A stretch of DNA of 64,000 nt from Acidimicrobiales bacterium (GCA_035536185.1 DATLOM010000018.1:135865-199864); one strand, 5' to 3'. Numbered from the stretch's first letter, positions 10,626-61,155 are shown. Program-made: numbers and translations. Notes: generated from the sequence alone by a model not told the origin.

Positions 10626-17357
<6,732 letters not shown>

Positions 17358-20486: not shown

Positions 20487-20733
20487 TGCCCTGTGAAGCG
20501 GCGTCGGCTTCACCCCAGCGCATCTGCGAAGACTCCGCACCGCTGGCAAGGAGCTGGTTGAACAATGCGTCCAAGCGGACGGCGACCTCCATGGTGAGCC
20601 AGATCTCGCCGCAAGATGGACATCCCTCAACGGGAACATCGAGGACGATAGCGGTGCGGCCGTCCTTCTGGGCGAGGCGCGCCCGATGTGTTGGACGCCG
20701 TGCACCGTCGTTGCAGTGTTCGCATCGCATCAT
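20479..20733 (-). CDS. YgiT-type (MqsA N-terminal-like) zinc-finger protein
   Basis: Trimmed to ATG 20733 (RBS GGAGGAAAC). The sequence MMRCEHCNDG...VPVEGCPSCGEIWLT has two CxxC pairs. 84 aa. Confidence 0.65.
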   Translation of the reverse strand: MMRCEHCNDGARRPTHRARLAQKDGRTAIVLDVPVEGCPSCGEIWLTMEVAVRLDALFNQLLASGAESSQMRWGEADAASQGTS

Positions 20734-20797
20734 GTTTCCTCCGTCAGGTACCCGGCTCGACGATCGGACCAGCGCCGATAAAGCGCAAGGGAGGAGA

Positions 20798-21102
20798 TCA
20801 GGCGAGTTGCTTGGTTGATGTGACGTCCCGAAAGCCCAGGCGCGCGTTTGGCTCGTAGTCTCCGTGGAGTACCTCTGGTGCGAGGTCCAAGCCATTCGGC
20901 CACACGGCGGTGCCTGCCTCCTGGTCGACCCGGACCTTGGCGAAGTAGGCGGGGTCATCGAGTGGCTCGAGGAGCGAACCCGAAGCCGCGCCAGGCACGT
21001 ACTGGACATCCCTCACTACGCCTCGTCGAATAGCAGGCGCATCACGTGCGGGCGAATGACAGCGACGCCTACAACTTCAGGGCTGCGACCTGGAGCAGTC
21101 AT
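20798..21102 (-). pseudogene. DUF2442-like protein, apparently split by a frameshift or stop at 21016-21018
   Basis: The C-terminal piece shows LEPLDDPAYFAKVRVDQEAGTAVWPNGLDLAPEVLH, the DUF2442 signature as I recall it. An upstream 28-codon piece (MTAPGRSPEVVGVAVIRPHVMRLLFDEA, ATG 21102) ends in TAG, one base out of frame. Confidence 0.45.
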
Positions 21103-21221
21103 TGGATCGCGATGGTACCCGGCGGTCCGCCGCTGCTCACCCTCTGCCAAGCCCTGACAAGTTCGCTTCGGTGCAGCTGGGCTCAGTCGCAAACGAGCCT
21201 TGTCTGAAAGGCTGGTAATCG

Positions 21222-21281
21222 AAATGGTGGGGCCGCGCAGGGATTTTAAACCTACGTAGGCTGTGCCGACAGATTTGCAGT
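21222..21281 (-). repeat. Degenerate copy of the 3' ~60 nt of tRNA-Tyr (att-like remnant)
   Basis: aaatggtggggccgcgcagggattttaaacctacgtaggctgtgccgacagatttgcagt aligns with 26451-26510 of the intact tRNA-Tyr, with a few substitutions and indels. It has no 5' half. Confidence 0.75.
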
Positions 21282-21459
21282 GGGCGAGGAAGTCTGCGAT
21301 CGCCCACAGCAGGCCCGGTGACCTGGCTCTTATCGGCAGGATCACCCGACCCGCCACGTGTGATTCGTGTGGGATCGGCGACCGCGTCGGCGCACGGCCG
21401 TCTGGTCGCAAAGCGCGATGCGGCAACCGCTTATGGAGCGGCAATACGCGGAAGGACGC

Positions 21460-22353
21460 TCAGCGGCTGAGATGGGCGGTGACGTTGCCGGCGTCATCGA
21501 CCCCGTACACGTCGAGTTGCAGAGTCCGCCGGATCGCCTCTGGTACGCGAAGGGCACCGGCGACGTGACGTTCCGGTACGACGATCGCGTAGCGCACGCC
21601 GTCGCTGTCGTCGCTCATGCGCCGGAGTAGCTGTCCATACCCGGTGTCGATGTCGAGGTTCGGCGCCAAAGTCGAGCCCTTTGCCTCCGCCACCAGGCGC
21701 TCGACCCCTCGGGTCGCGACGACATCGGCCCAGTCGACCTCCGTCTCGACGTCCCATCCCCGCGAGCGCAACCACGTTGAGAAGCCTGCGACGACGACGG
21801 CCTCGCTCGGTCCGGTTGTGGCGTTCCGGCTCGTCCGCCGGCGGGCGCTCTGGAGCAATGGGACCGGGTCGAAAGGGACGAGCGGCGTGGAGCGCCCCAG
21901 GCGTTGTGGATGGCGGGGGTGGCCCTTGCTCGTGGTCCCAAAGCACCACAGCTGGTGGGAGGCGACGAACCGGAGCACCGATGTTACGCGATCCGAGAAA
22001 TGTGATCCCTGCTCGCCCCAGCCAACGACGATGATGTCGGCGTCGCGCAGGTGTCGTGCGATCGTGGCGTCATTGTCCGGCCCGACGGGATCGGGATGCG
22101 ACCGCAAGAGCGCGGGGTCGGTGGTCCGAAGGGCGAACAGGTTGACGATCGTGACCGTTCCGACGGAGTGTTTTGGGATGGACACGGCGAACCGGAGCAC
22201 CGCGGCAACGGTGGGGTCGTCGCTGGTCTCGTCAGCGGTAGAGGGGTTGAGCAAGACGAGCACGGCCTGCGCGCCGTTTCCCAGCGTGCGCGTGAGGTCG
22301 TAACGGTAGATCCCATCGTCACTGATGGTCGCCGTCCGCTCCACGCCCCACAT
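21460..22353 (-). CDS. DUF1643-like N-terminal domain fused to a PD-(D/E)xK-type (restriction-endonuclease-like) C-terminal domain
   Basis: The N-terminus shows VLLNPSTADETSDDPTVAAVLRFA...VNLFALRTTDPALL. The C-terminus shows GWDVETEVDWADVVATRGVERLVAEAKG, which fits the D...E-x-K pattern. Confidence 0.6.
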   Translation of the reverse strand: MWGVERTATISDDGIYRYDLTRTLGNGAQAVLVLLNPSTADETSDDPTVAAVLRFAVSIPKHSVGTVTIVNLFALRTTDPALLRSHPDPVGPDNDATIARHLRDADIIVVGWGEQGSHFSDRVTSVLRFVASHQLWCFGTTSKGHPRHPQRLGRSTPLVPFDPVPLLQSARRRTSRNATTGPSEAVVVAGFSTWLRSRGWDVETEVDWADVVATRGVERLVAEAKGSTLAPNLDIDTGYGQLLRRMSDDSDGVRYAIVVPERHVAGALRVPEAIRRTLQLDVYGVDDAGNVTAHLSR

Positions 22354-22815
22354 TGTTACCGATCCTCAGCTGTCAGTGGCGATAGGTACGGACGAATTCG
22401 AAGCGGCTACGCGAAGCGCCGATGCGCCGATCGGTCCGGCTTCGGGCAGTCGGGGCACACCGGGTCAAGCGGCTGATAGTGGTGTCCCTGACTGGCATCT
22501 CGGGGCGATGCCCCACGTTGTTAGGCATGCACGTTCGGGGACACCCGTCGCCCGCCCTGCCACGCCAGAGCCGTCGTTCGGTCGCGACGATCGCCTTTGG
22601 GCAGCGTCTTGGTCTCGGAAGTCCCAGTCCGACACGATTACGTCATCGACGACGGTGGATGTTCGCTTGCGGATGCCGTCAGCTCCGGCGGTCCGCTGGG
22701 CCTTCTTCGGCGTGTCAAGCGGGCCGCGATCGGGGCGGCGGGCCGCAGCCGGCAAAAACGGTGCCAGGCACCGCTAATCAGTTGGCGTAGGAGGATTACG
22801 CCGTAGTCTCGATCC

Positions 22816-23472
22816 GTGGCGAGGGTCTACGTGTTCGGCGACGAAGCCGGCAATCTCGACTTCAAAGTGGCGAAAGGCGCCAGCAAGTACTTCATCGTAT
22901 GCAGCGTCACGATGCCGGACTGTGGCGCGGGGGATGACCTAATGGAGCTTCGACGGGAGCTCGCGTGGCAAGGAGTAGCCCTGGAGTCGACCTTCCACGC
23001 TACCGAGGACAAGCAGGTCGTGCGGGATGAGGTCTTTCGGCTTCTCGCCGACGTCGACCTCCGGGTGGACGCCACCATCCTCGAAAAGCGGAAGGCTCTG
23101 CCTCGCCTGCAGCAGGACAAGGAGCACTTCTACAAGTTCGCCTGGTACTACCACTTCAAGCATGTCGCCCCAAGGATCGCTTCTAGCAAGGACGAGCTGC
23201 TGGTTGTCATCGCCTCCATCGGAACGAAGAAGCGCCGCAAGGGCATTCGCCTCGGCATCGAGGACGTAATCTGGCAGTCGAGCCGGACAACCACTTGGGA
23301 GGTCGCATTCTGGCCCGCAGAGAGCGACCCATGCCTGCAGATCGCCGACTACTGCACGTGGGCTGTCCAGCGAAAGTGGGAGGCCAACGACGACCGGTCG
23401 TACCAGATCATCAAGCCGAAGATCCGCTCCGAGTACAACCTGTGGAGCGCAGGCACGACCTACTACTACTGA
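22816..23472 (+). CDS. DUF3800-family protein
   Basis: It shows VYVFGDEAGNLDF at the N-terminus and CLQIADYCTWAVQRK near the C-terminus. It uses a GTG start with no clear RBS. Confidence 0.6.
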   Translation: MARVYVFGDEAGNLDFKVAKGASKYFIVCSVTMPDCGAGDDLMELRRELAWQGVALESTFHATEDKQVVRDEVFRLLADVDLRVDATILEKRKALPRLQQDKEHFYKFAWYYHFKHVAPRIASSKDELLVVIASIGTKKRRKGIRLGIEDVIWQSSRTTTWEVAFWPAESDPCLQIADYCTWAVQRKWEANDDRSYQIIKPKIRSEYNLWSAGTTYYY

Positions 23473-23733
23473 GAGAGGTTCCCCAGCCAACTAGCGCTGC
23501 GGCAGAGCCCAGGGGCTCTTTCATCGGCTGAGCAACCTCACGCCCACCCTAGCAACAGCGTGGGACGACGCACGGGGATGGTCAGCTCTGAACGCCTCGT
23601 CGAAGGGCCGGGAACTTCGCCTCCAGCGCCTTCACGGTCAATCTTGCTGAGTGGTGGATCGTCGCAATCAGGAAGCGATAGCGCGCTGGGCGGGCGATCT
23701 AGGTCGACTCGCAGCGTCTTGGAAGGCGACGGG

Positions 23734-24687
23734 TCAGATGGTTCCAGGGCCCGTGGGGTCGATGCGTCCAGCCAGTGTATCGGCAATAGGGCCGTCCTGG
23801 CGCAGCGGATCGACCTCCTTCATCAAGTAGTCCGGCGGGAAGTCAAGGTTTCGCGTGCCGGCAATCTCGTGCACGGGGTACATGCAGTAGATGCCGTCGC
23901 CCAGCAGCTCTCCGGCCTCGTTCCGACGAAGGTTGCCGGTCGATCCCGAAAAGATGAAGCCGGGTTTCGATTCGTACCCATGCTCTGCGTCGTCCGGCCT
24001 CTCATCCTCGGCGGCGGGCGAGATCGAGTACTGCGTATAAAGCTCGATCCCTAAGAACCCTGGAAGCTCGCACTTCGCGTGCGGCAGGAGCACTCGGAGC
24101 TCAAGGACCGCTTTGGCAGGGTGAAAGACCCGGATGACGGGTCGGCCATTCGCGTCCAGTCGGATGAACCGGCGCCAAAGCGGCGGGAAGTAGTAACCCT
24201 CCAGCGATAGGACGTCAGCATCGTCGAGGCGCGTCACGTCCGCGTCGTCAAAGACGACTGTGTCGGCACTCTCAGTCGTCTCAGGCACGAAGTCCTCGAA
24301 CCTCGTGAGGGCCAGCCCGAAGGCGGGCCCGCGGATCGGATCCCAAAACGGCCAGGTCATCACCCCCATCCCGCGGATCGTGCCGTCCGCTTCTCGGCCA
24401 GAGACGAGTCCTGCACCTGAGAACTGCATGAACCCGTCGGGATGGTGGGAGAGCTTGATCTCCTTGTCCTCGGCTGCCGCCCCAGCGAGGTCGACCGCCT
24501 CCTCCAGCGGGACTTCCATCTGCTGCTTTGCGTAGTTCACCGTCATCTTGACGAACTGCGCCTTCTCTTCTGGATGGATTGGTGCCGTGACGTAGTACGA
24601 GCCGTCCGCGCCGTACACGATGCGGGTGAGCCGGTAGAGCTTGCCTTCGTGGCGATATGCAACGCGATACGAACTCCTGCCAGGCAT
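23734..24687 (-). CDS. Hypothetical protein with no family recognised
   Basis: The ORF has coding-like composition. I prefer the internal ATG 24687 (MPGRSSYRVAYRHEGKLY...) over the listed 24888 start, but the start remains uncertain. Confidence 0.4.
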   Translation of the reverse strand: MPGRSSYRVAYRHEGKLYRLTRIVYGADGSYYVTAPIHPEEKAQFVKMTVNYAKQQMEVPLEEAVDLAGAAAEDKEIKLSHHPDGFMQFSGAGLVSGREADGTIRGMGVMTWPFWDPIRGPAFGLALTRFEDFVPETTESADTVVFDDADVTRLDDADVLSLEGYYFPPLWRRFIRLDANGRPVIRVFHPAKAVLELRVLLPHAKCELPGFLGIELYTQYSISPAAEDERPDDAEHGYESKPGFIFSGSTGNLRRNEAGELLGDGIYCMYPVHEIAGTRNLDFPPDYLMKEVDPLRQDGPIADTLAGRIDPTGPGTI

Positions 24688-25167
24688 GGACCCCAGGATC
24701 GCACACCATAAATGGGTTCCGTTGTGGACCCGGCTCACAGAATCGGCGATCTGCTCGCAGGTCGTGACCCGCGGCGGTGTCCCAGAACGCGCTGCGACAC
24801 TCGGTTCTCTACAGATGCCCCCCAACGCCGGATGAAGGTCCCGGGTCGAAACGAAGCCGGTGTGGATGGCCGTGGCTCGGGTCCCCACCGGACGCCCGAG
24901 TCGAGTTGAGCGACTGGACGGCTGACCTGGCTCCGGGTCGTCGGTTGCTGGAGGTGGCCCGCCATGCCTACTTCGCCTTCACCATCACCATCACCATCTA
25001 CACCCTCGTCATGCCGAGCCTCCGCAGCGAAGCGGCCGACCTCATGGACGGGGTGCTCCGACCACCTGCTGAAGCGCCGGATCCTCAAGTGGCTACAAAA
25101 GTGGCTACAAAAGGCCTTGGCCGCGACCCCCCGGGAATGGCCTGAAACGCGAAACTGCTGGTCATCG

Positions 25168-25184
25168 AATGGTGGGCCGGGCAG
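25168..25184. repeat. 17-bp direct repeat AATGGTGGGCCGGGCAG, identical to the tRNA-Tyr 3' end at 26452-26468
   Basis: There is an exact match at both flanks of the IS element. Confidence 0.9.
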
Positions 25185-26451
25185 TGTGGGATCCCATGAC
25201 ATAGGCGACAGCTGTGTCAAGACATAGGAGACACCGAGCAGGAGGGTCTTCCTATGGAGCTAGGGCGGTATCTGGTCGAGGCACATCTTCGGGAGGGTCG
25301 CTCGGTCACTGAGCTGGCCGCAGCCCACGGGATCCACCCCAGCTGGATCTACAAGCTGTTGGGCCGCTACCGAGAACACGGCGAAGCGGGGCTGGCGGCG
25401 CGATCACGCCGGCCACGCTCGTCGCCGACCCAGGTGGCAACCGAGCTCGAGGACGAGATCGTGTTGCTGCGCAAGCAGCTCTTCGAGGAGGGCCTCGACG
25501 CCGGTGCGGTGACCATCCACTGGCACCTGAGCCGACGCCACCCCGAGGTGCCCTCGGTGAGCTCGATCTGGCGGGTCCTCAAACGCCGGGGCTTTGTTGT
25601 TCCACAGCCCAAGAAGCGGCCACGCTCGTCGTTCGTCCGCTTCGAGGCCGAGCTGCCCAATGAGACCTGGCAGTCAGACATGACGCACTGGTCCCTGGCC
25701 CACGGCACCGGGGTGGAGATCGTCAACTTCATCGACGACCACAGCCGGCTGTGCTTGGCCTCTGTGGCGCGGGCGGTGGCCCGGGCCACCGATGTGGCTG
25801 AGATCTTCATCGCCGCAGCTCAGCGCTACGGGACCCCGGCCTCGGTGCTCACCGACAACGGCTGCATCTACACCGCCAAGCACCGGGGCGGCAAGGTCGT
25901 CATGGAGACCCTGCTCGAGACCCTCGGGGTGACCTACAAGCACTCGAGCCCCTATCACCCCCAGACCTGCGGCAAGGTCGAGCGCTTCCACCAGACCGAA
26001 AAGAGGTTCCTGGCCAAACAGCCCGGTGCCGCTGATCTGGCCGAGCTGCAGGCCCAGCTCGATCGCTTCGTGGCCTACTACAACGCCTCCCGGCCTCATC
26101 GGGCCCTGGGGCGGCGAACCCCGGGGGAGGTCTTTGAGGCCAAGGTCAAAGCCCGGCCCCGCCACCACGTCCCCAACACCCACTTCCGGGTCCGCCACGA
26201 CAAGGTCGACAAGACCGGCTGTGTGACCTTGCGCTATGAGAGCCGGCTTCTCCACATCGGCATTGGTCGAGCCCACACCGGCGAGCGGGTTCTGATGCTC
26301 ATCGCCGATCGAGACGTGCGGGTGGTGAGCGAGAACGGCGAACTCATCCGCCAGCTGACCATCGACCCCACCCGTGACTACCAACGCCGCCGGTGAAGCC
26401 GATGTCTACGATGTCTCGCGACATCTGTCTCCGATGTCTCGCGACATCACA
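25185..26451 (+). mobile_element. IS481-family insertion sequence (1267 bp)
   Basis: It carries a single rve/DDE transposase gene. Imperfect ~50-bp terminal inverted repeats both begin with TGTG and share GACAT(A/C)GGAGACA modules (about 28 of 38 matched by eye). It is flanked by the 17-bp direct repeat. Confidence 0.75.
25254..26396 (+). CDS. IS481-family transposase (HTH + integrase-core DDE domain)
   Basis: 380 aa containing ETWQSDMTHW, FIDDHSR, LTDNG and SPYHPQTCGKVERFHQT. Confidence 0.85.
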   Translation: MELGRYLVEAHLREGRSVTELAAAHGIHPSWIYKLLGRYREHGEAGLAARSRRPRSSPTQVATELEDEIVLLRKQLFEEGLDAGAVTIHWHLSRRHPEVPSVSSIWRVLKRRGFVVPQPKKRPRSSFVRFEAELPNETWQSDMTHWSLAHGTGVEIVNFIDDHSRLCLASVARAVARATDVAEIFIAAAQRYGTPASVLTDNGCIYTAKHRGGKVVMETLLETLGVTYKHSSPYHPQTCGKVERFHQTEKRFLAKQPGAADLAELQAQLDRFVAYYNASRPHRALGRRTPGEVFEAKVKARPRHHVPNTHFRVRHDKVDKTGCVTLRYESRLLHIGIGRAHTGERVLMLIADRDVRVVSENGELIRQLTIDPTRDYQRRR

Positions 26452-26453
26452 AA

Positions 26454-26538
<85 letters not shown>

Positions 26539-43736: not shown

Positions 43737-45185
43737 GTGACACTGGCGACCAGAGCGAAAAGACAATCACCCGGCTTTCGCTGGAACCCCCCCTTCCGGC
43801 GGGCGGCGGGTGTGGTCGAGGTGGACTTCGAGACGCCACCGAGGGCGCGGGCACGGTCGGGACAGCGGCTTGCCGTCGTTCGGCTGCTCCCGGTCCTGTT
43901 GGACTCGGCCTGCCTGGCCGTTGCGTGGCTGGCCGTCGTCGCCGTGCTGGGAACGCCGAGCTCGATGGAGACGGCGTCGTTCACCGGTTTCGCCATCGCC
44001 TCGATGATCGTCGCCGGCCTCATCCACGCCTTCATGGGGCTGTACGCCGCAGGTCCCGCCGCCCTGGGCATCATCGACGTCACCAACGTCGTACGCGCCT
44101 CGCTGGGCTGGGGCACCCTCGCCGCCGGCGCCGCGTTCCTGATCGAGCCGCCCATCCCGCAGGCATGGGTGGCCCTGTCCTGCCTCTTCGGCTGCGTGCT
44201 CGTCGCCGCCACCAGGCGGGCCCTGTGGCACTGGTGCCCCGACCACGGCAAGAGCCTGTACGGCCGCCCTTCACCGGCCGATCCGGACGTTCGCCTGGGG
44301 TACGACATGGGCCGCCTCCGGAAGCGCTACATGGTGATCGCGGCCATGGGAGGACGGCGGCAGCGTTGCCAGGAGGTGCTCAAGCGGGGCGTCGACCTCG
44401 TCCTGACGCCCGTGATCATCGCCTTCACGTTGCCGGTCATGGCTGTGGCCGCGCTCGTGATCCTCGTGAGCGAGGGCCGGCCCATCCTGTTCCGCCAGCG
44501 CAGGGTCGGGCGCAACGGGGTCCCGTTCACCATCTTCAAGTTCCGCACGATGGTGCCGGATGCCGAGAAGCAGCTGATCGACCTGCGCGAGCTCAACGAG
44601 CGGGACGGTCCCCTGTTCAAGCTGACCCACGATCCGAGGGTCACCCGTACCGGCCGGCTCCTCCGAGAATCGAGCATCGACGAGCTGCCCCAGCTGTTCA
44701 ACGTCCTCGTCGGGACCATGAGCCTCGTCGGGCCCCGGCCGGCGCTGGCGGACGAGACCGAGCTGTTCGAAGCGGACCTGCTGCGCCGGCACCACCTTCG
44801 CCCCGGGATCACCGGGCTCTGGCAGGTGCGCTCGCGGGACGACGCTTCCTTCGAGTCCTACCGGTACCTCGACCTCTGCTACCTGGAGAACTGGTCCGTC
44901 CTGACCGACATGGTCATCCTCTTCGCCACTGTGCCCGCCGTCCTCCGCCGTGGCTGGAGCCTCCTCCTGCGGGCGGCACCGGGCAACTCGTTCTCGGCAG
45001 GACGGCGCCTCATGGTCAGGCTCGGCCGTCGCCCGCAGGATGACGGTGGCGTCCTTGCTCCGGCCGGAGCGTCTCTCTTCCCCGCCGCCACCGCTTCAGC
45101 ACCGGGGGTGCGCGAGGTGATCCTGAGCTCGAGCCTGGACGTGGCCCTTCCTATGAACGAGGCGGGGCTCAGCCAAGGACGGTGA
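43737..45185 (+). CDS. Polyprenyl-phosphate sugar phosphotransferase (WbaP / Bac_transf-type priming enzyme)
   Basis: It has N-terminal transmembrane segments. It shows [54 protein letters not shown] and [10 protein letters not shown]. Confidence 0.85.
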
Positions 45186-47109
45186 CGGCGACGACGGGGC
45201 TGGGCGGCGGGTTGCTGCCGAGGGAGCCGTCGAAAGGCTTGTCGCTGAACACGAAGGCACCGCCGTCGGCCGCCACCAGCAGGTAGCCGTTGCCGTAGCT
45301 GACCATCCCGCTGACCGGCTTGTTCAGGCGGAGGTCGCCGAGCGAGCCCCTGAACGGGGCACTGAAGGCGAACACACCTCCGTCGGAGGCCACCATGTAG
45401 TAGCCGTCACCGTCGGGGTCGGGTACGAGCGACTGGACCGGGGCGTTCAGGCGCTTGCCGCCCATCGACCCGTGGAACGCGGCGGCGCCGAAGGCGAAGG
45501 TGCCCCCGTCGGAAGCGACCATGTAGTAGCCGTCACCGCGGGAGGTGGTGACCGAGTCCCGGATCGGCCCGTTCAGCGGCTTTCCCGCCATGTCGCCGAA
45601 GTGGGTCGCGTCGCCAAAGGTGAGCACCCGGCCTTTGGTGGTGAACATCCAGTAGCCGTTGCCGCTCCTGGTCCTCGACAGCGACGTGACGGACTCGCCG
45701 GCAGAGAGGGGCGTGGCATTTCCGTGCCAACGGGCGGTGCCGAACGCGAAGACCCGGCCGGCGGTGTCGACGACCCAGTACCCGTCCCCCCCGCTGGTGG
45801 CCTCGATGTCCACCGCGTTGGCATCCCTAACCGGGGCGTTGCCAAGGTAGGGGGCGGCGCCGAAGGCGTAGACGGCACCCTTCTGAGCCACCATCCAGTA
45901 GCCCGACCGGCCCGAAGAGGGCCGGGCGCCGATGGATCCCCCGGAGAGCAGTGCGGGCTCGCCGAACGGCGGTGCCAGCGCCACCCGGGGGGTGCCGCCG
46001 CCACCGATGCTGCCGGGGCCGTTGTTCGTGACGTGGTGGAGCTGGTCGAAGAGGCGGTTCATGTCCCGGTTCCAGGCGGTGTCGGACCAGCCTGAGTTCG
46101 AATAGGTCGACATGTTGATGCCGGCGGCGGCCATCTCGGCCTTGACGCCGTGCTCGACGTTGAGCAGGTTCTGGCCCCAGCCGGTGTCGAACCCGGAGTT
46201 GTCCACGACGTAGGAGCCGTAGTTCTGCCACGCCTCGGCCAGCTTGCGGGCGGGGCCGGTCTCCAGACCGAGGGAGTTGATGTCGACCCAGCCCGGGATG
46301 GAGAGCAGCGATCCCATCTTGAGGATCGGGGTGTAGCCGCGGGCGTTGACGCCGTAGTTCTGTCCGGTGTTGTTCGAGTCGGCGGCGTAGGCCGGCCACT
46401 GGTAGGCGTTGCGGTCCGCTTCACGGGTGCCCCACCGGCTCATGTCGACGGTCAACTTGGTGACGTGGCGGATCGGGGCGACACCGGTCAGCTCCCCTCG
46501 GCGGATGCTGCCGCCGACGCCGCTCAGACCGGAGCCGCCGTGGCCGCCGAAGAACGACGACGGCCGGCCGTTGCCGTAGAGGTCGAGGGTGCTGCGAAGG
46601 CCGTCGCCGGTGAGGCTGGCCGGGCCTCCGGCGTCGCACCGGGACAGGTAGTTGAACTCCCGGATGGTCCGCCCGTCGGCCAGCAGGGCTCCGCCGGCCA
46701 GGTTGGGCATCTTGCCCTCCCAGCTCCCGTCACCGGGGGCCACCACGTAGTCATCGGGGATGGGAAGGGAGACGCCGCTGCTGGCGTCGCCACTCTGGTG
46801 GCAACGGGCCGGCCAGGCGTGGGTGTGCACCGGCCGCAGCGGGCTGGACGGCGCCATGACGATCGGGTTGGAGTCGGTTCCGTACCCGTTTGGCGGCTGG
46901 AAGAAGTTCGGATCGGCGAAGGTCGCCCCCGAGCCCACGGGCATGTTCCAGATGCTGTCGGATGAGAACGGCCAGGCGTAGGGGTTCCGGGCGGTGGGAT
47001 CGGCCGCCGCTGCGGTCGGGGAGAGGCTCAGCCCGACGAGGCCGGAGATGAGGGTGAGGGCGGCGGCGAGCAGCGCGATGCCGGCATGCCGGCGGGGGGG
47101 CGATTGCAT
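45169..47109 (-). CDS. Secreted protein: uncharacterised ~370-aa domain (paralogue 1) plus six C-terminal ~41-aa beta-propeller-like repeats
   Basis: It has a signal peptide and the conserved block NPYAWPFSSDSIWNMPVGSGATF...GGGGTPRVALAPP. The repeats have the form (D/N)GY(W/Y)xVxxDGGxFAFGxAxFxGS. Confidence 0.7.
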   Translation of the reverse strand: MQSPPRRHAGIALLAAALTLISGLVGLSLSPTAAAADPTARNPYAWPFSSDSIWNMPVGSGATFADPNFFQPPNGYGTDSNPIVMAPSSPLRPVHTHAWPARCHQSGDASSGVSLPIPDDYVVAPGDGSWEGKMPNLAGGALLADGRTIREFNYLSRCDAGGPASLTGDGLRSTLDLYGNGRPSSFFGGHGGSGLSGVGGSIRRGELTGVAPIRHVTKLTVDMSRWGTREADRNAYQWPAYAADSNNTGQNYGVNARGYTPILKMGSLLSIPGWVDINSLGLETGPARKLAEAWQNYGSYVVDNSGFDTGWGQNLLNVEHGVKAEMAAAGINMSTYSNSGWSDTAWNRDMNRLFDQLHHVTNNGPGSIGGGGTPRVALAPPFGEPALLSGGSIGARPSSGRSGYWMVAQKGAVYAFGAAPYLGNAPVRDANAVDIEATSGGDGYWVVDTAGRVFAFGTARWHGNATPLSAGESVTSLSRTRSGNGYWMFTTKGRVLTFGDATHFGDMAGKPLNGPIRDSVTTSRGDGYYMVASDGGTFAFGAAAFHGSMGGKRLNAPVQSLVPDPDGDGYYMVASDGGVFAFSAPFRGSLGDLRLNKPVSGMVSYGNGYLLVAADGGAFVFSDKPFDGSLGSNPPPSPVVAVTVLG

Positions 47110-47133
47110 GGTCTTGGCTCCAGCGGGACCAGG

Positions 47134-47220
47134 ACCGGTCGGTTTCGGTAGTCCGGCTAGGTCAATGACCCCCGTGACTTTGCGCCTCCGCCTCGCGACG
47201 GATTTGCCGGTTCGACCGAT
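47134..47220 (-). ncRNA. Candidate c-di-GMP-I (GEMM-I) riboswitch aptamer, copy A
   Basis: The minus strand reads AUCGGUCGAACCGGCAAAUCCGUC-GCGA-GGCGGAGGCGCAAAGUCACGGGGGUCAUUGACCUAGCCGGACUACCGAAACCGACCGGU. It contains GGCAAA, a GNRA-capped hairpin, CGCAAAG, a second hairpin, and an 8-bp closing helix. It ends 24 nt upstream of ATG 47109. Confidence 0.6.
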
Positions 47221-47308
47221 CTAACGGACGTTTCTTCAGCCTTGATCGACAGGTGCAGCGAGGGGCTTTAGCGGGCGATCCCGGACGTGGTTCGTCCATC
47301 GGAGGTGT

Positions 47309-48985
47309 TCATCGGCTCGACTGCTTCTTGAGCCTGGGCGCCTTCGTGGTCGTGGTGGTGGCCGGCATCGTGGTCGTGGTCGTGGTCGTCGTCGTGGCGA
47401 TCGTCGGAATCGTCGTGGTCGTGGTCGTGGTCGTGGTGGTGGTCGTCACCACCGCGTCCGCTCGGGTGAAGCCGGCCTCGGCGTAGAAAACGTTCCCGTT
47501 GGTCAGGGTCATCCGGGCACCGATCCGGTGGGTGCCCAGCGACAGTTGCCTCAGCGGGGTCGCCAGACTGGTGCTCTGCTCGAAGTCGTAAGGCGTGGCC
47601 GCCTCCGATCGGGTATCGACGCCGTCGAGCGTGAAGCTCACCGCGGTTACGCCCGGATCGTTCACGAAGACATAGGTCTGGCTGTCGACGGCGGTGTCCC
47701 GGAGGGCTCGCCCGTTGCTGCGGTCGGCGTTGTCGCTGACCCTGATCAGGTCGACCATGTCGACGGGAGCAGTGGTTGTCGGAGCCGGCGTGGTCGTCGT
47801 GGTCGTGGTCACGTCCGGTGCCGGGCTCGACGCTGTGGCGAACGGCGGCGCCAGGGCCACCCGGGGGGTGCCGCCGCCGCCCACGGTGGCCGCGCTGTTG
47901 TTGGTGACGTGGCGGAGCTGGTCGAAGAGGCGGTTCATGTCCCGGTTCCAGGCCGTGTTGGCCCAACCCGAGCTCGCGTAGGTCGACATGTCGATGCCGG
48001 CGGCGGCCATCTCGGCCTTGACGCCGTGCTCGACGTTCAGCAGGTTCTGCCCCCAGCCGGTGTCGAAGCCGGAGTTGTCCACGATGTAGGAGCCGTAGTC
48101 CTGCCAGGCCTGGGCCAGCTTGCGGGCCGGTCCGGTCTCCAGGCCGATGGCGTTGACATCCACCCAACCCGGGATGGACAGCAGCGACCCCATCTTGAGG
48201 ATCGGGGTGTAGCCGCTGGCGTTGACGCCGTAGGTCTGGCCGGTGTTCTCGGAGTCGGCGGCATAGGCGGGCCACTGGTAGGCGTTGCGGCCCCCTTCAC
48301 GGGTGCCCCACCGGCTCATGTCGACGGTCAACTTGGTGGCGTGGCGGATCGGCTCGGCACCGGTGAGCTCACCCCGGCGGATGCTGCCCCCGACCCCGCT
48401 CAGCCCTGAGCCGCCGTGGCCGCCGAAGAACGAGGACGGCCGGCCGTTGCCGTAGAGGTCGAGGGTGCTGCGCAGCCCGTCGCCCGTGAGGCTGATCGGA
48501 CCTCCGGCGCTGCAGCGGGAGAGGTAGTTGAACTCACGGATGGTGCGCCCGTCGCCCAGCAGGATCCCACCCGCCAGGTTGGGCATGTTGCCCTCCCAGC
48601 TGCCGTCGCCGGGGGCCACGATGTAGCCGTCGGGGATCGGGAGTGACACTCCGCTGTAGGTGTCGCCACTCTGGTAACAGCGGGCCGGCCAGGCGTGGGT
48701 GTGGACCGGCCGCAGCGGGCTGGACGGCGCCATGACGATCGGGTTCGAGTCGGTGCCGTACCCGTTGGGCGGCTGGAAGAAGTTCGGGTCCGAGAAGGTC
48801 GCTCCCGAACCGACCGGCATGTTCCAGATGCTGTCGGATGAGAACGGCCAGGTGTACGGGTTGCGACTGGTAGCCTCGGCGGCAGCTCCCGTCTGGGAGA
48901 GGTTCAACCCGACCAGCCCCGAAGCAAGGGTGAGGAGGGCAGCGAACACCGGAACGCCCGAACGGCGGCGGGTGGGCGATTGCAT
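47309..48985 (-). CDS. Secreted protein: the same ~370-aa domain (paralogue 2), then a poly-Thr linker, a ~110-aa domain and a poly-Thr tail
   Basis: It has a signal peptide and the block NPYTWPFSSDSIWNMPVGSGATF...GGGGTPRVALAPP, followed by TTTTTTTPAPTTT. The C-terminus is TTTTTTTTTTTTIPTIATTTTTTTTTMPATTTTTKAPRLKKQSSR. Confidence 0.7.
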   Translation of the reverse strand: MQSPTRRRSGVPVFAALLTLASGLVGLNLSQTGAAAEATSRNPYTWPFSSDSIWNMPVGSGATFSDPNFFQPPNGYGTDSNPIVMAPSSPLRPVHTHAWPARCYQSGDTYSGVSLPIPDGYIVAPGDGSWEGNMPNLAGGILLGDGRTIREFNYLSRCSAGGPISLTGDGLRSTLDLYGNGRPSSFFGGHGGSGLSGVGGSIRRGELTGAEPIRHATKLTVDMSRWGTREGGRNAYQWPAYAADSENTGQTYGVNASGYTPILKMGSLLSIPGWVDVNAIGLETGPARKLAQAWQDYGSYIVDNSGFDTGWGQNLLNVEHGVKAEMAAAGIDMSTYASSGWANTAWNRDMNRLFDQLRHVTNNSAATVGGGGTPRVALAPPFATASSPAPDVTTTTTTTPAPTTTAPVDMVDLIRVSDNADRSNGRALRDTAVDSQTYVFVNDPGVTAVSFTLDGVDTRSEAATPYDFEQSTSLATPLRQLSLGTHRIGARMTLTNGNVFYAEAGFTRADAVVTTTTTTTTTTTTIPTIATTTTTTTTTMPATTTTTKAPRLKKQSSR

Positions 48986-49009
48986 GGTCTTGGCTCCAAA
49001 GGGACCAGG

Positions 49010-49096
49010 ACCGGTCGGTTTCGGTAGTCCGGCTGGGTACGAGACCTCCGTGACTTTGCGTCTCCGCCTCGCGACGGATTTGCCGGTTCGACCGAT
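49010..49096 (-). ncRNA. Candidate c-di-GMP-I (GEMM-I) riboswitch aptamer, copy B
   Basis: It is near-identical to copy A. It has GACGCAAAG instead of GGCGCAAAG and a different apical sequence in hairpin 2. It sits at the same 24-nt distance from ATG 48985. Confidence 0.6.
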
Positions 49097-49202
49097 CTAA
49101 GCGGGCGGGACCTCGTCTCCATCGGCCGGCGCTCGGTGGTGCTTGAGCGCGACGTTCCCGCTGAGCCAACGTGCGTAAGGGCCCCCGTAGCGGAACGGAA
49201 GA

Positions 49203-50705
49203 TCAGGGATGCGTCGCGGGCTCCGGCACCGATGTCGTGGCGATACGCACCTGCCACGCCGGATTGCGGCTGAGGGCCCATGCAAGGGGCACGCACAGGT
49301 ACCACTGCACCACCGGCTGGGCCAGCAGGTTCTCCGACGAGCACTGGACGACGAACGCGGCAAATGCGGCGGCGGCGCCGACGACCACGCCTCGATTGAT
49401 CCCCGCCGGCAGGGCCCGCAGCGCCCGCCTCAGCTCGAAGGTCACGGCCAGGAAGAAGGCCACAAGAGCGAGTAGCCCGGCGGCCCCGGTCTCGACGACT
49501 GCCTGGACGAAAACGTTGTGGGGAGGAAGCTTGTATGCGGTACGGCGCTCCACGACGTTGAGCCCGATACCTGTGATCGGCCCGTCCGACGTGAAGGGCA
49601 GTACGTCCTGCCAGTACTGGATCCGCCATGACAACGAGTCGGGGTCGCCGATCACCGAACCGGAGTCGCCGCCGAGGTCAGCCAGGCGGCTGGCCGCCGA
49701 CGGAACGGCCAGCAGGACGACGGCAGTGCCCGCGATCACGAGCCAGATGAGGCGCCGGTCCTGGAGCCATCCGATGAGCATCACGCCGACGAAGGCCGCC
49801 GCCCAAGCTCCCCTGGCATAGGTGAAGAACAGCAGGAACCCCGACGCGCCGGCCACGGTCACGATCCCGACGCGGACGAAGCGGCGGACGTGGGGCAACA
49901 GAGCCACCGCCACCGGGAAGAGCATGGTGAGATAGGCGGCGAACACGTTGGGATGGACGAAGGTCCCCTGAATGCGGCCGACGTCGAGGGCCGGACCGTA
50001 GAGCGGGACCTCGGGGACGTTGCCTTGAAGCTGAAGGGCGGCCGTGAAGGCGGGAACGATCATCGAAGCGAAGGTGGCCACGAGGAGACCGGGGAGCCGA
50101 TCGGGCCGGTCGCGCAGCGCCTGCTCGAGGACGATGAGCATGACCGCGGTCGACACCACCCTCAGGGCCGCCTGGAAGCTGACAGTCGGGGCGTCCGAGG
50201 TGACCGAGCTCAGGACGCAGACCCCGGCCAGCGCCACGAAGGCGAGGCTCGAGCGGGAGGAGACGATGGGCAGGCCCGAACGCCAGCGCCGGTAGAGCCA
50301 GACGGCCGAAGCACACAGGATCACCATGCCGAGGACCGTCGACGGTTCGGCGGGGAGAGCAGCCTCTCCGGACTTGAAGTAGTCGAGCCCCGGCCGGCTG
50401 GCGAAGACGATCACGACCGCGGCCCAGAACCGGCTGGCCGCCCAGCGGACGGTCGTGTACCCGACGACCACAGCCAGTATGCCGAAGAGGGGCAGCCCCA
50501 GGCCCGGACGGGAGGCCGAGACGGCGCCGGTGACGACGGACGCGACCACGACGGCTACGGCGAGCATTGGGAGGAACAGACCTGACCGCTCGGCCGCTGC
50601 AGGCGAAGACCCGTTGTCACTCCGGGAGTCGCTATGGCCGCCCGCACCACCGCTTCGGGAGGCTCTGAACGCCTGCGTGGTGGGCGCCCCGCCTGTCGGG
50701 CTCAC
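49203..50705 (-). CDS. O-antigen ligase / Wzy-like polymerase family membrane protein (start uncertain)
   Basis: It has about 10 or more hydrophobic segments. The motif FLLFFTYARGAWAAAFVGV is typical of Wzy_C proteins. Confidence 0.6.
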   Translation of the reverse strand: MSPTGGAPTTQAFRASRSGGAGGHSDSRSDNGSSPAAAERSGLFLPMLAVAVVVASVVTGAVSASRPGLGLPLFGILAVVVGYTTVRWAASRFWAAVVIVFASRPGLDYFKSGEAALPAEPSTVLGMVILCASAVWLYRRWRSGLPIVSSRSSLAFVALAGVCVLSSVTSDAPTVSFQAALRVVSTAVMLIVLEQALRDRPDRLPGLLVATFASMIVPAFTAALQLQGNVPEVPLYGPALDVGRIQGTFVHPNVFAAYLTMLFPVAVALLPHVRRFVRVGIVTVAGASGFLLFFTYARGAWAAAFVGVMLIGWLQDRRLIWLVIAGTAVVLLAVPSAASRLADLGGDSGSVIGDPDSLSWRIQYWQDVLPFTSDGPITGIGLNVVERRTAYKLPPHNVFVQAVVETGAAGLLALVAFFLAVTFELRRALRALPAGINRGVVVGAAAAFAAFVVQCSSENLLAQPVVQWYLCVPLAWALSRNPAWQVRIATTSVPEPATHP

Positions 50706-50748: not shown

Positions 50749-51735
50749 TCACGCCTCATCCGCGACCCTCACCGGCTGAGAAGCGACGTCACGGCCCCCG
50801 GGGGGCCACCCGACCACATCGGCCTGCCTTGCCTGGACAGCTTCCGCCCGGCGGCGCTTGCGCCAGTCCAGGAGGGCGAAACCGCCGAGGGTGCCCACCA
50901 CTGTCACCAGCGTCGATCCGACCACCCCCCGAGCGATGGCGGACGTTCGGGAGACGGGCGAAGCTCCCCCGTCCTTCACCAACCCCGGAGTCTCCACGGC
51001 CGCAAGCCTGGCCGTAGCCAGCTGCCGGTCGCTCTCGGCTTTGGCGATGGTCTCCTCTGACCGGTCGAGACGGTTGAGCAGCACGTCACGCCGGGAGCGC
51101 AGGGCGCTCATCTCGGCCAGCTGCGCGACGACCGCGTCCGCCTGGGCACTCGTGGCCGGGTCCGCCCGCAGCGCGGCGAGCCTCCGCCTCTGGTTCTCGT
51201 ACTCGGCGTCGAGGTCGGCGAAGCCGGTGGACTCGTCCAGCGCCGCCAGCTCGTCACGCGTCGCTTGCAGATTGCTGGAAGCCTCCTTCACCTGCGAGTC
51301 CGCGAGGGCCCGGTCCTGCTCGGCCAGAGCTCTGAGGGTGGCCAGGGCCGCCTCTCTCGGAACTCGAGCGGCGATCTCGGGGTCCTCGGAACCTTTGAAG
51401 ACGATGGAGACGATTGTGCCCTGGTTCGCCCGGGAGGAGACGGTGCCGAGCGCTATGTCGAGGGCGGGCACCCCTGTCGACTTGGAAACGGCGTCGGTCG
51501 TCTCGGAAAAGGTGAGGCTGGACTGGAAGGTCGACACGAACGGGTCCATCTCGATCCCGGCCCGCCCGGGATAGAGCTTGGAGAGGAAGACCACCGCCCT
51601 GCCCTCGTACAAGGGAGGAGGGCTGACGATCGTCCCCACGGTCAGCCCGATGCTCAAGGCCGTGACGGCAACGAGGAGAACCCGGCGACGAACCGTGAGG
51701 TTCACCAGAGGAGGGGCTGGAGCCGTGGGGATCAT
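50749..51735 (-). CDS. Wzz-like polysaccharide co-polymerase (chain-length determinant)
   Basis: It has N- and C-terminal transmembrane segments flanking a long coiled-coil region (ALADSQVKEASSNLQATRDELAALD...). There is no kinase domain. Confidence 0.55.
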   Translation of the reverse strand: MIPTAPAPPLVNLTVRRRVLLVAVTALSIGLTVGTIVSPPPLYEGRAVVFLSKLYPGRAGIEMDPFVSTFQSSLTFSETTDAVSKSTGVPALDIALGTVSSRANQGTIVSIVFKGSEDPEIAARVPREAALATLRALAEQDRALADSQVKEASSNLQATRDELAALDESTGFADLDAEYENQRRRLAALRADPATSAQADAVVAQLAEMSALRSRRDVLLNRLDRSEETIAKAESDRQLATARLAAVETPGLVKDGGASPVSRTSAIARGVVGSTLVTVVGTLGGFALLDWRKRRRAEAVQARQADVVGWPPGGRDVASQPVRVADEA

Positions 51736-55386: not shown

Positions 55387-55583
55387 CTGTCCCGCCTTCT
55401 TCGAGAGACGGCGAATGCTAGATGCCGTCCCCGACAGTCCTCCCGACCAGGATCGTGCCGCCGCTACCGCTACCGTGCCCCATCGTGGCGGAAACCCAGA
55501 CGGTCGACACCCTGGAGCGCCAGGAGCGCCCGGAGACTCCGAGCTCAGGCGGCCGGGAGCGGGTACCGCGGCGGGAGCCGGTG

Positions 55584-56870
55584 ATGATCTACATGCTGGC
55601 CTGTCTCGTCCTGCTGGCCGGTGGCTTGTGGGCGGCGGCCCACCACCGTGAGCAAGAGCAGCCCTCGCCGGTGCCGGCGCCGGCGCCGGAGCGGCAAGGC
55701 TCTGCGGCCGAGGGGCCCGGAGCGGTATCGCCTCCCGCCATGGCCGAGTCACCGGAGACTCCGCCCTCGGTCGTCACTCAGGCGCCGAAGCCGAAGCCAC
55801 CTCCCACACCCCCGACAACCGCTCCGATCCGGTCGAGGAACGCCCAGCAGTGGCCCTTCTCCTCCGACAGCATCTGGAACATGCCGATCGGTTCAGGTGC
55901 GACCTTTGCCGACCCGAACTTCTTCCAGCCGCCCAACGGTTACGGCTCCGACGCCAACCCGATCGTCATGTCGCCCTCCAGCCCGCTGCGCCCGATCCAC
56001 ACCCACGCCTGGCCCGCCCGCTGCCACAAGAGCGGCGACGCCTACAGCGGTGTCTCGGTCCCCATCCCCGACGACTATGTGGTGGCCCCCGACGACGGCA
56101 ACTGGGATGGCAAGACGCCCAACCTCTCGGGGGGCGTGCTGCTGGCTGACGGGAGGACCGTCCGGGAGCTCAACTACTTCTCCCGCTGTGAAGCCGGTGG
56201 GCCGGCGAGCGTCACCACCGACGGGATGCGCAGCACCCACGACCTCTACGGCAACGGGCGCCCGGATTCGTTCCTCGGGGGCCACGGCGGATCGGGGCTG
56301 AGTGGTGTCGGCGGCAGCATCCGCCGGGGGGAGCTGATCGGTGCCGCCCCGATCCGCCACGTCACCAAGCTGACCGTCGACATGAGCCGGTGGGGCACCC
56401 GTGAAGGGGGCCGCAACGCCCATCAGTGGCCCGCCTACGTCGCCGACTCCGACACCACCAGCCAGACCTACGGGCTCAACGCCCGCGGCTACACGCCGAT
56501 CCTCAAGATGGGATCACTGCTGGCCATCCCTGGGCCGGTCGACCTCGACTCGCTCGGCCTGGAGACCCGTCCCGCCCGCAAGCTGGCCGAGGCCTGGCAG
56601 AACTACGGCTCCTACGTCGTGGACAACTCCGGGTTCGACACCGGCTGGGGCCAGAACCTGCTCAACGTCGAGCACGGCGTCAAGGCCGAGATGGCCGCCG
56701 CCGGCATCAACATGTCGACCTATTCGAGCTCAGGCTGGTCCGACACCGCCTGGAACCGGGACATGAACCGCCTCTTCGACCAGCTCCACCACGTCACCAA
56801 CAACGGCCCCGGCAGCATCGGTGGCGGCGGCACCCCCCGGGTGGCGCTGGCACCGCCGTTGGTCCCGTAG
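55584..56870 (+). CDS. Membrane-anchored protein carrying the same ~370-aa domain (paralogue 3)
   Basis: The likely start is ATG 55584 (MIYMLACLVLLAGGLWAAA, a transmembrane anchor). A Pro-rich linker follows, then QQWPFSSDSIWNMPIGSGATF...GGGGTPRVALAPP. Confidence 0.7.
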   Translation: MIYMLACLVLLAGGLWAAAHHREQEQPSPVPAPAPERQGSAAEGPGAVSPPAMAESPETPPSVVTQAPKPKPPPTPPTTAPIRSRNAQQWPFSSDSIWNMPIGSGATFADPNFFQPPNGYGSDANPIVMSPSSPLRPIHTHAWPARCHKSGDAYSGVSVPIPDDYVVAPDDGNWDGKTPNLSGGVLLADGRTVRELNYFSRCEAGGPASVTTDGMRSTHDLYGNGRPDSFLGGHGGSGLSGVGGSIRRGELIGAAPIRHVTKLTVDMSRWGTREGGRNAHQWPAYVADSDTTSQTYGLNARGYTPILKMGSLLAIPGPVDLDSLGLETRPARKLAEAWQNYGSYVVDNSGFDTGWGQNLLNVEHGVKAEMAAAGINMSTYSSSGWSDTAWNRDMNRLFDQLHHVTNNGPGSIGGGGTPRVALAPPLVP

Positions 56871-59775: not shown

Positions 59776-61155
59776 TTGACCGTCGGCATGAAGCCTTCGG
59801 CTGAGGCTGCCGAAGGGCTGCGCCGGCCATCGGTAGCGCAGTCGATGCTGGTCACCGTCGGCGCCAGCGCGGTCACTCTGGTGGTGACCCTCTTCACCGG
59901 CGTCCTCACCGCCCGGCTGCTCAACCCCGCCGGCCGGGGTGAGGTCGCGGCCGTCGTGGGATGGGCCACCACGGTTGCCCTCCTCGCGTCGCTCGGGTCC
60001 AAGGAGTCCGTCACCTACCTCCAGTCGAAGGAGCCGGCTCACGCCCGCTCCCTGCTCACCACTTCGATCGTTTACATCTGCCTGCTGGGATCGGCAGGCG
60101 TGGCCGTGGCCGAGCTGCTGGTGCCGATCGGGTTCGCATCCCAGCGGGGCGAGGTCGTCGATCTGGTGCGGGTATTTCTCCTCATGACGGTGCCGATCAT
60201 GATGTGGGAGGGCCTCATCGGGGTTCTGAACGGCCATCAGCTGTTCGTGGCCGCCAGCGCCGCTCGTGTCGGCCAGCTCACCGCCTTCGCAGTCGGCCTC
60301 TTCGCGCTGTGGCAGCTGGACCGGGTCCACGTGCTCTCGGTACTGCTGGCGCAGGCTCTCAGCCACGTGGGCACCGCCGCTGTGCTGATCGTCTTTCTCG
60401 GGCACCGGGTCGGTTTCGGCCGCTTCTCACCGGCCCTGGCCCGCCGGATGCTCACGGACGGCCTGAAGCTGCACATGGGCAGCCTGGGCAGCATCGGCAA
60501 CGCCCGGATGGACATCCTGGTGATGCCGGCGATCCTGGCTCCGAGGGAGATCGGGCTGTACGCGGTGGCGGTGAGCGGCGCCTCCATCGTCGTCTCGCTC
60601 TTCGGCGGCCTCCGCGCCGTCGTCTATCCCATCGCCGCCCGCCGCGGGGCGGACAGCGGCATGCCGCTGGTCGAGACGACCCTGCGCTTCACCATGACGG
60701 GGGCGTTCCTCGTCGGTGCCGTCCTGGCGCTGGGCGCGCCGTTCCTCGTGCGCCTTCTCTACGGCGACGACTTCGCCGGCGCCGTCCGGTCCCTGCAGAT
60801 CCTGATCCCCGGTCTCGTGCTGTGGTCGGGGGCGGCGATCCTCGGCGGCGGGATGAATGCCCTCGGCAAGCCGCTCCTCACCAGCCTGGCCCAGTTCGCC
60901 GGCCTCGCCGTCACCGTGGTGGGGCTGCTGGTGACCTTGCCCACGCTCGGGATCGTCGGTGCCGCACTCACCTCCACGCTGGCCTACGGGACCGTCTTTG
61001 GGATCCTCTTGGTCCTCCTGTCCCGGCAACCCGGCTTCTCGGCCCGCCGCGCCCTGTCGCCGCGGCGCTTCGTCCATGACGCGGTGAGGCTTCTGGCCAT
61101 GGCCAACGGCGCCGCCCGGCGGAGGCGGCACGAGCACGAGCACGAGCACGAGTGA
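59776..61155 (+). CDS. Wzx-like polysaccharide flippase (MOP superfamily)
   Basis: 459 aa with about 12 or more hydrophobic helices. Its N-terminus is typical of polysaccharide biosynthesis proteins. The C-terminus is RRRRHEHEHEHE. Confidence 0.6.
   Translation: MTVGMKPSAEAAEGLRRPSVAQSMLVTVGASAVTLVVTLFTGVLTARLLNPAGRGEVAAVVGWATTVALLASLGSKESVTYLQSKEPAHARSLLTTSIVYICLLGSAGVAVAELLVPIGFASQRGEVVDLVRVFLLMTVPIMMWEGLIGVLNGHQLFVAASAARVGQLTAFAVGLFALWQLDRVHVLSVLLAQALSHVGTAAVLIVFLGHRVGFGRFSPALARRMLTDGLKLHMGSLGSIGNARMDILVMPAILAPREIGLYAVAVSGASIVVSLFGGLRAVVYPIAARRGADSGMPLVETTLRFTMTGAFLVGAVLALGAPFLVRLLYGDDFAGAVRSLQILIPGLVLWSGAAILGGGMNALGKPLLTSLAQFAGLAVTVVGLLVTLPTLGIVGAALTSTLAYGTVFGILLVLLSRQPGFSARRALSPRRFVHDAVRLLAMANGAARRRRHEHEHEHE

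Follow-up and report, generated by a model that had tools for sequence, protein, structure and literature searches.

Two complete c-di-GMP-I riboswitches, lying on one strand and spaced 1.9 kb apart, precede two paralogous genes for secreted proteins in the 64-kb stretch of Acidimicrobiales DNA analysed here (64,000 nucleotides, hereafter the window). The interpretation that we favour, with moderate confidence, is that these tandem genes each stand behind a functional, canonical c-di-GMP-I riboswitch of the GYRA subtype, which would act as an OFF switch through a slip in the register of its closing helix, P1. The class is already well known, the present pair being a further example of textbook material. 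The genes, leaders and aptamers are as follows.

45169-47109, minus strand: regulated gene 1, 646 aa, with a signal peptide, an unannotated domain of ~350 aa and a C-terminal repeat module
47309-48985, minus strand: regulated gene 2, 558 aa, with the same N-terminal domain, Thr-rich linkers and a different C-terminal region
47110-47224, minus strand: whole leader 1, comprising aptamer and expression platform, from TTAG to the last base ahead of ATG, recognised by its likeness to leader 2
48986-49100, minus strand: whole leader 2, recognised by its likeness to leader 1, each element lying at the leader 1 coordinate + 1876
47144-47218, minus strand: c-di-GMP-I aptamer copy 1, match to RF01051 (55.4 bits, E 4.2e-8)
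49020-49094, minus strand: c-di-GMP-I aptamer copy 2, match to RF01051 (53.0 bits, E 1.6e-7)

Both matches are full-length (model positions 1-87 of 87) and stand above the RF01051 gathering score of 35; the E-values refer to a search of the whole 64-kb window against all 4227 Rfam families, in which the only other matches were four tRNAs. The first-pass annotation of this DNA had called a c-di-GMP-I (GEMM-I) aptamer in leader 1 and had named cmsearch with RF01051 as the check. That search returned the site and its twin, the ligand-contact nucleotides are intact, and the earlier minus-strand transcription of 47110-47224 agrees exactly with the sequence. The annotation was thus right about the aptamer that it described, but it missed the near-identical second copy. 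In our judgement the site is almost certainly a genuine c-di-GMP-I riboswitch.

In the ligand-bound aptamer, G20 contacts one guanine of c-di-GMP, A47 intercalates between both guanines, and C92 is the Watson-Crick partner of the second guanine. These are the ligand-contacting nucleotides of the c-di-GMP-I aptamer (PMC4744006, PMC6140456), and the interhelical C44-G83 pair is universally conserved in GEMM (PMC4744006). The corresponding positions and the two hairpins are as follows.

47208 (copy 2: 49084), minus strand: G20 equivalent, from the RF01051 alignment and structural mapping
47181 (copy 2: + 1876), minus strand: A47 equivalent, an A and not the G of the GGC variant, from alignment and mapping
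47148 (copy 2: + 1876), minus strand: C92 equivalent, from alignment and mapping
47184, minus strand: C44 equivalent, partner of the G83 equivalent at 47157, from the RF01051 alignment
47187-47202, minus strand: P2 hairpin UCCGUC-GCGA-GGCGGA, with a GYRA-type GNRA tetraloop at 47196-47193, from alignment and mapping
47150-47179, minus strand: P3 hairpin AGUC-A-CGGGGGUC AUU GACCU-AG-CCGGACU with a short distal tip, from alignment, mapping and folding

The GGCAAA element, the GNRA-capped hairpin and the CGCAAAG element noted earlier are present at 47208-47203, 47202-47187 and 47184-47178 (minus strand), respectively; the hairpin is supported by the model as P2, and the last element is followed by the second hairpin (47179-47150). 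The alignment places C47184 and G47157 at the positions of the interhelical P2/P3 pair C44-G83, and C92 is a C in 93 of 96 family members. Minimum free energy (MFE) folding of the isolated aptamer reproduces P2, P3 and the G21-C46 pairs. The aptamer lies on the sense strand, in the 5' leader, and ends ~35 nt before the ATG.

The GCGA loop is the second commonest P2 loop among ~94 distinct metagenome relatives. The signature of the 11-nt receptor accompanies 26 of 37 GAAA loops and none of 90 loops other than GAAA. A GCGA loop combined with a short P3 assigns the present aptamers to the GYRA, or helix-docking, subtype, in which the P2 loop is predicted to dock on P3.

A change of specificity, by which the RNA would belong to the c-GAMP-sensing GEMM-Ib or the c-di-GMP-I-GGC variants and bind a ligand other than c-di-GMP, is in our view very improbable. 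In a permissive scan, clan competition did retain the GGC model (RF03167) by E-value; however, RF01051 is higher in bits and above its gathering score, whereas RF03167, at 53.5 and 50.5 bits, remains below its own score of 59. Moreover, the GGC consensus reads CGCGAAG, against CGCAAAG here, where A47 is kept. It is an A at position 20 (G20A) that confers c-GAMP acceptance on GEMM-I aptamers (PMC6140456), and GEMM-Ib needs this A; both present copies have G (G47208 and G49084). The low RF03167 scores, A47 and G20 thus place the pair in the canonical c-di-GMP class.

Another line of evidence for function is the conservation of the leaders, which are identical at 106 of 115 positions. Of 206 fourfold-degenerate sites in the paralogous genes that follow, 33% differ, and at that neutral rate nine differences in 115 positions would be highly improbable (binomial P 1.4e-10). 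The differences fall where the riboswitch family tolerates change: the distal tip of P3 carries six, the loop of the Shine-Dalgarno (SD) hairpin described below carries two, and the remaining one (G or A) is at position 43. No difference touches either P1 strand, the junctions, P2, the P3 base or either arm of the SD hairpin. Conservation so far above that of neighbouring fourfold sites is the strongest evidence in this analysis that selection acts on the aptamer and on the expression platform; judged by this sequence comparison, we count selection on the aptamer, both P1 strands and the SD hairpin as established. A recent conversion tract is an unlikely explanation, since the likeness stops abruptly upstream of 47224, where the 100 nt 5' of TTAG show no relationship (identity in 49 of 111 aligned columns), and since the signal peptides just downstream of the leaders have diverged between the paralogues.

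It might be argued that the resemblance arose by chance, or that the site is a decayed relic that regulates nothing. In plain MFE folds of the 131-nt leaders the aptamer fails to appear (z about -0.6), and close protein homologues have no aptamer. Leader 1, however, is diverted in its MFE fold by base pairs with a C-rich coding stretch that is absent from leader 2, and we do not count the long-leader folds against the aptamer, because the isolated aptamer folds correctly. Two independent matches (E 4e-8 and 2e-7), strong purifying selection relative to neighbouring synonymous sites and the integrity of every ligand-contact nucleotide effectively refute this view, to which we assign a negligible probability.

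The closing helix P1 can form in two registers, and the choice between them determines the state of the expression platform in the model proposed below. The segments involved are as follows.

47213-47221, minus strand: P1 5' strand (G)AUCGGUCG, common to both registers, with AUCGGUCG at 47220-47213, from sequence and mapping
47139-47147, minus strand: canonical P1 3' strand CGA-AA-CCGA, directly after C92, from valid pairs, family architecture and a permutation control
47133-47141, minus strand: slipped partner CGACCGGUC of the P1 5' strand (CGACCGGU at 47141-47134), from mapping and folding
47110-47136, minus strand: SD-sequestering hairpin GGUCCUGGUCCC-GCU-GGAGCCAAGACC, with the SD GGAG at 47121-47118, from folding, shuffles and conservation
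48986-49012, minus strand: SD hairpin of leader 2, at the leader 1 coordinate + 1876

The canonical register consists of 3 bp (UCG:CGA; U47215-C47214-G47213 with A47145-G47146-C47147), an AA bulge (47144-47143) and 4 bp (UCGG:CCGA; U47219-C47218-G47217-G47216 with A47139-G47140-C47141-C47142), all of which are valid pairs. The slipped register pairs the same 5' strand with a partner 6 nt further downstream, which overlaps both the canonical 3' strand and an arm of the SD hairpin. It comprises 8 contiguous bp, extended to 9 bp by G47221:C47133, and leaves an 8-nt J3/1 (ACCGAAAC) after C92, so that the highly conserved C93-G94 is unpaired and the junction is expanded. Two registers are possible because CCGA is repeated on the 3' side (CCGA-AA-CCGA-CCGG), and they are mutually exclusive.

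Comparison with the family indicates which register is typical of P1. In 96 distinct family members, where P1 was found by locating the P3 3' strand and C92, a P1 directly after C92 is present in 87 and, by the rule used, absent in nine. Cognate P1 strands form 6.2 bp on average, compared with 3.9 +/- 0.17 bp for permuted partners (maximum 4.45 in 500 permutations), which signifies that the family P1 covaries. In the commonest form, CG is followed by a 2-nt AA bulge in the 3' strand and then by a longer helix, and both aptamers of the window fit it exactly (3 bp, 2-nt bulge, 4 bp). Neither P1, the slipped helix nor the SD hairpin shows covariation between the two copies in the window, because these are near-identical in the segments concerned. 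A family-wide enrichment test of other partners for the P1 5' strand further downstream does not tell slipped helices from canonical lower-P1 segments.

The closing helix proposed in the first-pass annotation, AUCGGUCG:CGACCGGU with 8 bp and one G-U pair, is the slipped register. The pairing itself is valid, but it is not a P1 of the family type. This contiguous helix is probably not the ligand-bound P1; it is more likely a competing, slipped pairing, in which case the logic implied earlier is reversed and the ligand would turn the gene off, not on.

The SD hairpin is the other half of the putative switch. A GGAG Shine-Dalgarno sequence and an ATG at 47109 are present as annotated, and the sequestering fold proposed next to the aptamer reaches -13.1 kcal/mol (z -3.0; none of 200 shuffles folds as well), pairs SD bases G47121, G47120 and A47119, and has stems that are identical in both leaders. 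Intrinsic terminators and sigma-70-like promoters were sought in both leaders, and none was found. The absence of a terminator, together with a significant SD hairpin whose stems are conserved while its loop varies, makes the earlier proposal of translational control reasonable, and we consider it fairly probable that control is exerted on translation through this hairpin.

The slipped helix uses up GGUC (47136-47133), which would otherwise form the lower stem of the SD hairpin. The rest of the hairpin is worth -6.5 and -5.5 kcal/mol (z about -0.5), like shuffled sequence. In nearest-neighbour energies, which ignore tertiary structure, Mg2+ and co-transcriptional folding, the slipped register is preferred throughout: -30.3 against -24.2 kcal/mol for the aptamer (~6 kcal/mol apart), -58.0 against -55.2 kcal/mol for the whole of leader 1, and -53.0 against -51.2 kcal/mol for the whole of leader 2. 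The GG of the SD is unpaired with a probability of 0.01-0.02 in the canonical state of both leaders; in the slipped state this value rises to 0.70 in leader 1 and, modestly, to 0.08-0.36 in leader 2.

We infer the register shift and the direction of regulation from thermodynamic argument only. When no ligand is present, the slipped 9-bp helix would prevail, taking the GGUC arm and halving the stability of the SD hairpin, and the gene would be translated. c-di-GMP, bound at the three-helix junction through G20, A47 and C92, would pay for the canonical register and release GGUC; the full hairpin of -13 kcal/mol could then form and bury the GGAG, and translation would drop. The Kd of Vc2 for c-di-GMP is picomolar (PMC6140456), and a binding energy of this class far exceeds the 3 kcal/mol at stake, so that the ligand could select the canonical register. 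An OFF switch by register slip is, in our opinion, the somewhat better supported direction in these models.

In the opposite reading, the 8-9-bp helix is itself the ligand-stabilised P1, which would take GGU(C), weaken the SD hairpin and turn expression on in response to c-di-GMP. In its favour, the pairs of this helix are valid, and thermodynamics prefers it as the helix that closes the isolated aptamer; it overlaps the hairpin arm and raises the accessibility of the SD, and ~9% of the family lack a P1 directly after C92. Yet it needs the 8-nt J3/1, whereas P1 abuts C92 in most relatives, and it leaves C93-G94 unpaired. Moreover, it is already the most stable state when no ligand is present, and as a ligand-bound P1 it would leave little to switch. 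We regard an ON switch as unlikely, though deserving of consideration. A functional aptamer might instead act mainly through Rho-dependent termination or mRNA stability in an operon of wzy, paralogue 2 and paralogue 1, the SD hairpin being a constitutive damper. Both riboswitches are intercistronic and on the same strand as the upstream genes, the leaders have no sigma-70-like promoter, and every modelled state of leader 2 keeps the SD mostly paired. Against this, the hairpin stems and the P1 overlap are constrained as strongly as the aptamer, as expected if they are part of the switch, and we consider such a mode of action improbable. Our preference stays with translational repression by c-di-GMP through the register slip.

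The two regulated proteins share 86% identity over their common 385 residues, and their best protein matches are in Acidimicrobiales metagenome-assembled genomes (MAGs). The domain of ~350 residues has no sequence or profile match in Pfam, NCBIfam or the PDB. A homology search places it in 362 proteins, and more than 517 genomic loci, of Actinomycetota, Cyanobacteria, Bacteroidota, Proteobacteria, Chloroflexota and Planctomycetota; some members are fused to dockerin, CBM4_9, PKD, fn3 or Por-secretion domains. The confident AlphaFold model of the domain (pLDDT 94.9, pTM 0.93) has no significant Foldseek match among solved structures in the PDB (best E 0.87, TM 0.09). Foldseek does match it to domains of phage tail components, one a minor tail protein of a Gordonia phage and the other a parallel-beta-helix tail protein (E 1e-15 to 2e-21, TM ~0.65). 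The profile phrog_17388, "minor tail protein", matches residues 140-346 (E 9.2e-12), and tblastn matches the domain to five Gordonia phages (E 1e-7), which confirms the likeness to phage tails at the sequence level. No characterised glycoside hydrolase or polysaccharide lyase family matches the regulated protein in sequence or fold. Residues E171, H180, D209 and D268 of the domain are invariant. The domain looks like an undescribed glycan-acting domain common to bacteria and phages, and the regulated proteins are, on this analysis, probably secreted enzymes that process or degrade polysaccharide.

The C-terminal parts of the proteins have features of their own. In gene 1, the last ~250 aa (45169-45960) consist of ~6 repeats of the type GYWMVAxDGGVFAFGdAxFxGS. 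This module has more than 2100 homologues in Acidimicrobiia/Actinomycetota and no Pfam family; it occurs fused to S8 peptidase, CAP, CHAP and fn3 domains, and JGI mislabels it 'ribosomal protein L24E'. In gene 2 (minus strand), long runs of ACC/ACG codons at 47330-47500 and 47700-47790 encode poly-threonine linkers (TTTTTTTTTTT), which are probably O-glycosylated and flank a C-terminal domain of ~110 aa without a family match.

The context of a polysaccharide cluster and secreted proteins, to which the first-pass annotation had appealed, is borne out: each protein carries a signal peptide, and each gene is part of a complete Wzx/Wzy-type cluster that also holds two GT4 and two GT2 glycosyltransferases and an acyltransferase. 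The principal cluster genes, and those of a separate signalling island, are as follows.

43737-45185: initiating transferase
49203-50705: Wzy_C polymerase
50749-51735: chain-length-like protein
59776-61155: Wzx flippase
10626-17357 (minus strand), 9795-10619 (minus strand), 6411-8651 (minus strand) and 17494-18297 (plus strand): signalling island genes

No GGDEF/EAL gene was found among the larger ORFs of the window that were tested. The unusual signalling island encodes a hybrid histidine kinase of 2243 aa (~13 HAMP repeats, a GAF domain and three receiver domains) and, next to it, a CheR methyltransferase, a REC-GAF-SpoIIE phosphatase and a REC-HATPase protein. A 482-aa ORF inside the polysaccharide cluster (55422-56870, plus strand) has a GC3 of 0.89, gene-like codon bias and no Pfam match. 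The region 19347-26538 resembles a mobile element, with an HNH/DUF222 protein, DUF1643, DUF3800 and an IS481-type integrase (25254-26396) that abuts a long-arm tRNA (26457-26538).

The closest homologues of the regulated proteins are encoded in the same kind of cluster, between GT4 and GT2 genes, without an aptamer; the four of them with 63-75% identity (P0002-P0005) have no Rfam match. Likewise, no aptamer motif was found upstream of the gene in 80 genome loci of the protein family, and none of ~125 metagenome aptamers with the same core is orthologous or precedes a homologous gene. The long N-terminus of a homologue with 87% identity (P0001) was considered as a translated leader and proved to be a membrane anchor. 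Five loci (L001, L002, L084-L086) share a conserved order of Bac_transf, Wzy_C, an unannotated protein of 437-516 aa, DUF1972-GT4, GT4, the homologue, GT2, Acetyltransf_6 and polysaccharide deacetylase. All five are without a riboswitch, which marks the RNA as a lineage-specific addition. The 63-75% homologues lacking an aptamer, together with the sharing of leader and gene as a unit by the two paralogues, indicate that this lineage gained the riboswitch and later duplicated it along with its gene.

These riboswitches mark two uncharacterised secreted proteins as c-di-GMP outputs in a poorly studied, mostly uncultured actinobacterial lineage. They tie an unannotated, widespread domain to the biofilm/matrix decision, with exopolysaccharide processing or degradation as the functional hypothesis, and the slipped-P1 design offers a compact, testable example of a translational riboswitch built in a high-GC genome. 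The presence of the class is unsurprising; the value of the locus rests mainly on the uncharacterised phage-related domain and the compact platform. A bolder and quite tentative proposition combines the two: a 6-nt slip, in which the P1 5' strand forms either the bulged helix that can accept ligand or the more stable one that takes the SD hairpin apart, would control a family of secreted enzymes, hitherto unrecognised, that acts on polysaccharides and is shared with phage tail proteins. Should it be true, c-di-GMP would be linked directly, at the level of translation, to matrix remodelling in Acidimicrobiia.

Among known systems, the nearest reference is Vc2 of Vibrio cholerae, the prototype of RF01051, with which the present aptamers share the three-helix junction, G20, A47 and C92, the C44-G83 pair and a GNRA loop on P2. 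As in the family at large, P1 is available directly after C92 with the typical AA bulge, and the RNA lies in the 5' leader of a secreted-protein gene. Vc2, however, represents the subtype with GAAA and its receptor, whereas the loop here is GCGA (GYRA), the 11-nt receptor is absent and P3 is short, in keeping with helix docking. J1/2 reads AACC in place of the usual A-rich run. Also unlike Vc2, the host is a high-GC actinobacterium, and the expression platform contains a second, slipped partner for the P1 5' strand.

Related in mode of action are GEMM-I loci from metagenomes that are of the translational OFF type (L100, L113, L121, L173, L177-L179, L199), in which the SD lies inside the P1 3' strand. 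These loci, too, are high in GC, have no terminator, place the SD ~10-40 nt from C92 and tie a ligand-stabilised P1 to occlusion of the SD; in the present leaders, by contrast, the SD belongs to a hairpin of its own, the lower stem of which is in competition with the slipped P1. At seven of the metagenome loci (L100, L113, L173, L177, L178, L179 and L199), the riboswitch precedes ORFs that start M-[SD]-[FY]-W-[ND]-G-[TS]-[RH]-W, a recurrent, unnamed association with high-GC c-di-GMP-I riboswitches whose SD is embedded in the P1 3' strand.

A tendency of c-di-GMP riboswitches towards tandem occurrence has been reported (PMC12452182), and four metagenome loci (L121, L133, L141 and L150) with two or three c-di-GMP-I aptamers per short contig fit it. 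Like the triple tandem Bc3-5 of Bacillus thuringiensis, the present system is multi-copy, with two riboswitches within 1.9 kb; unlike in Bc3-5, the copies are in separate leaders, each before its own paralogue, through duplication of gene plus leader. As to the proteins, PslG, BcsZ and ExoK are dedicated glycanases encoded in exopolysaccharide clusters; the regulated proteins are secreted and, like their homologues, encoded in a Wzx/Wzy polysaccharide cluster. In contrast to these enzymes, the regulated proteins match no characterised glycoside hydrolase or lyase, and their catalytic activity is putative. They also resemble the tail depolymerases of phages, in that phage minor tail proteins (phrog_17388) contain the same domain, which elsewhere occurs in fusions with dockerin, CBM and PKD modules.
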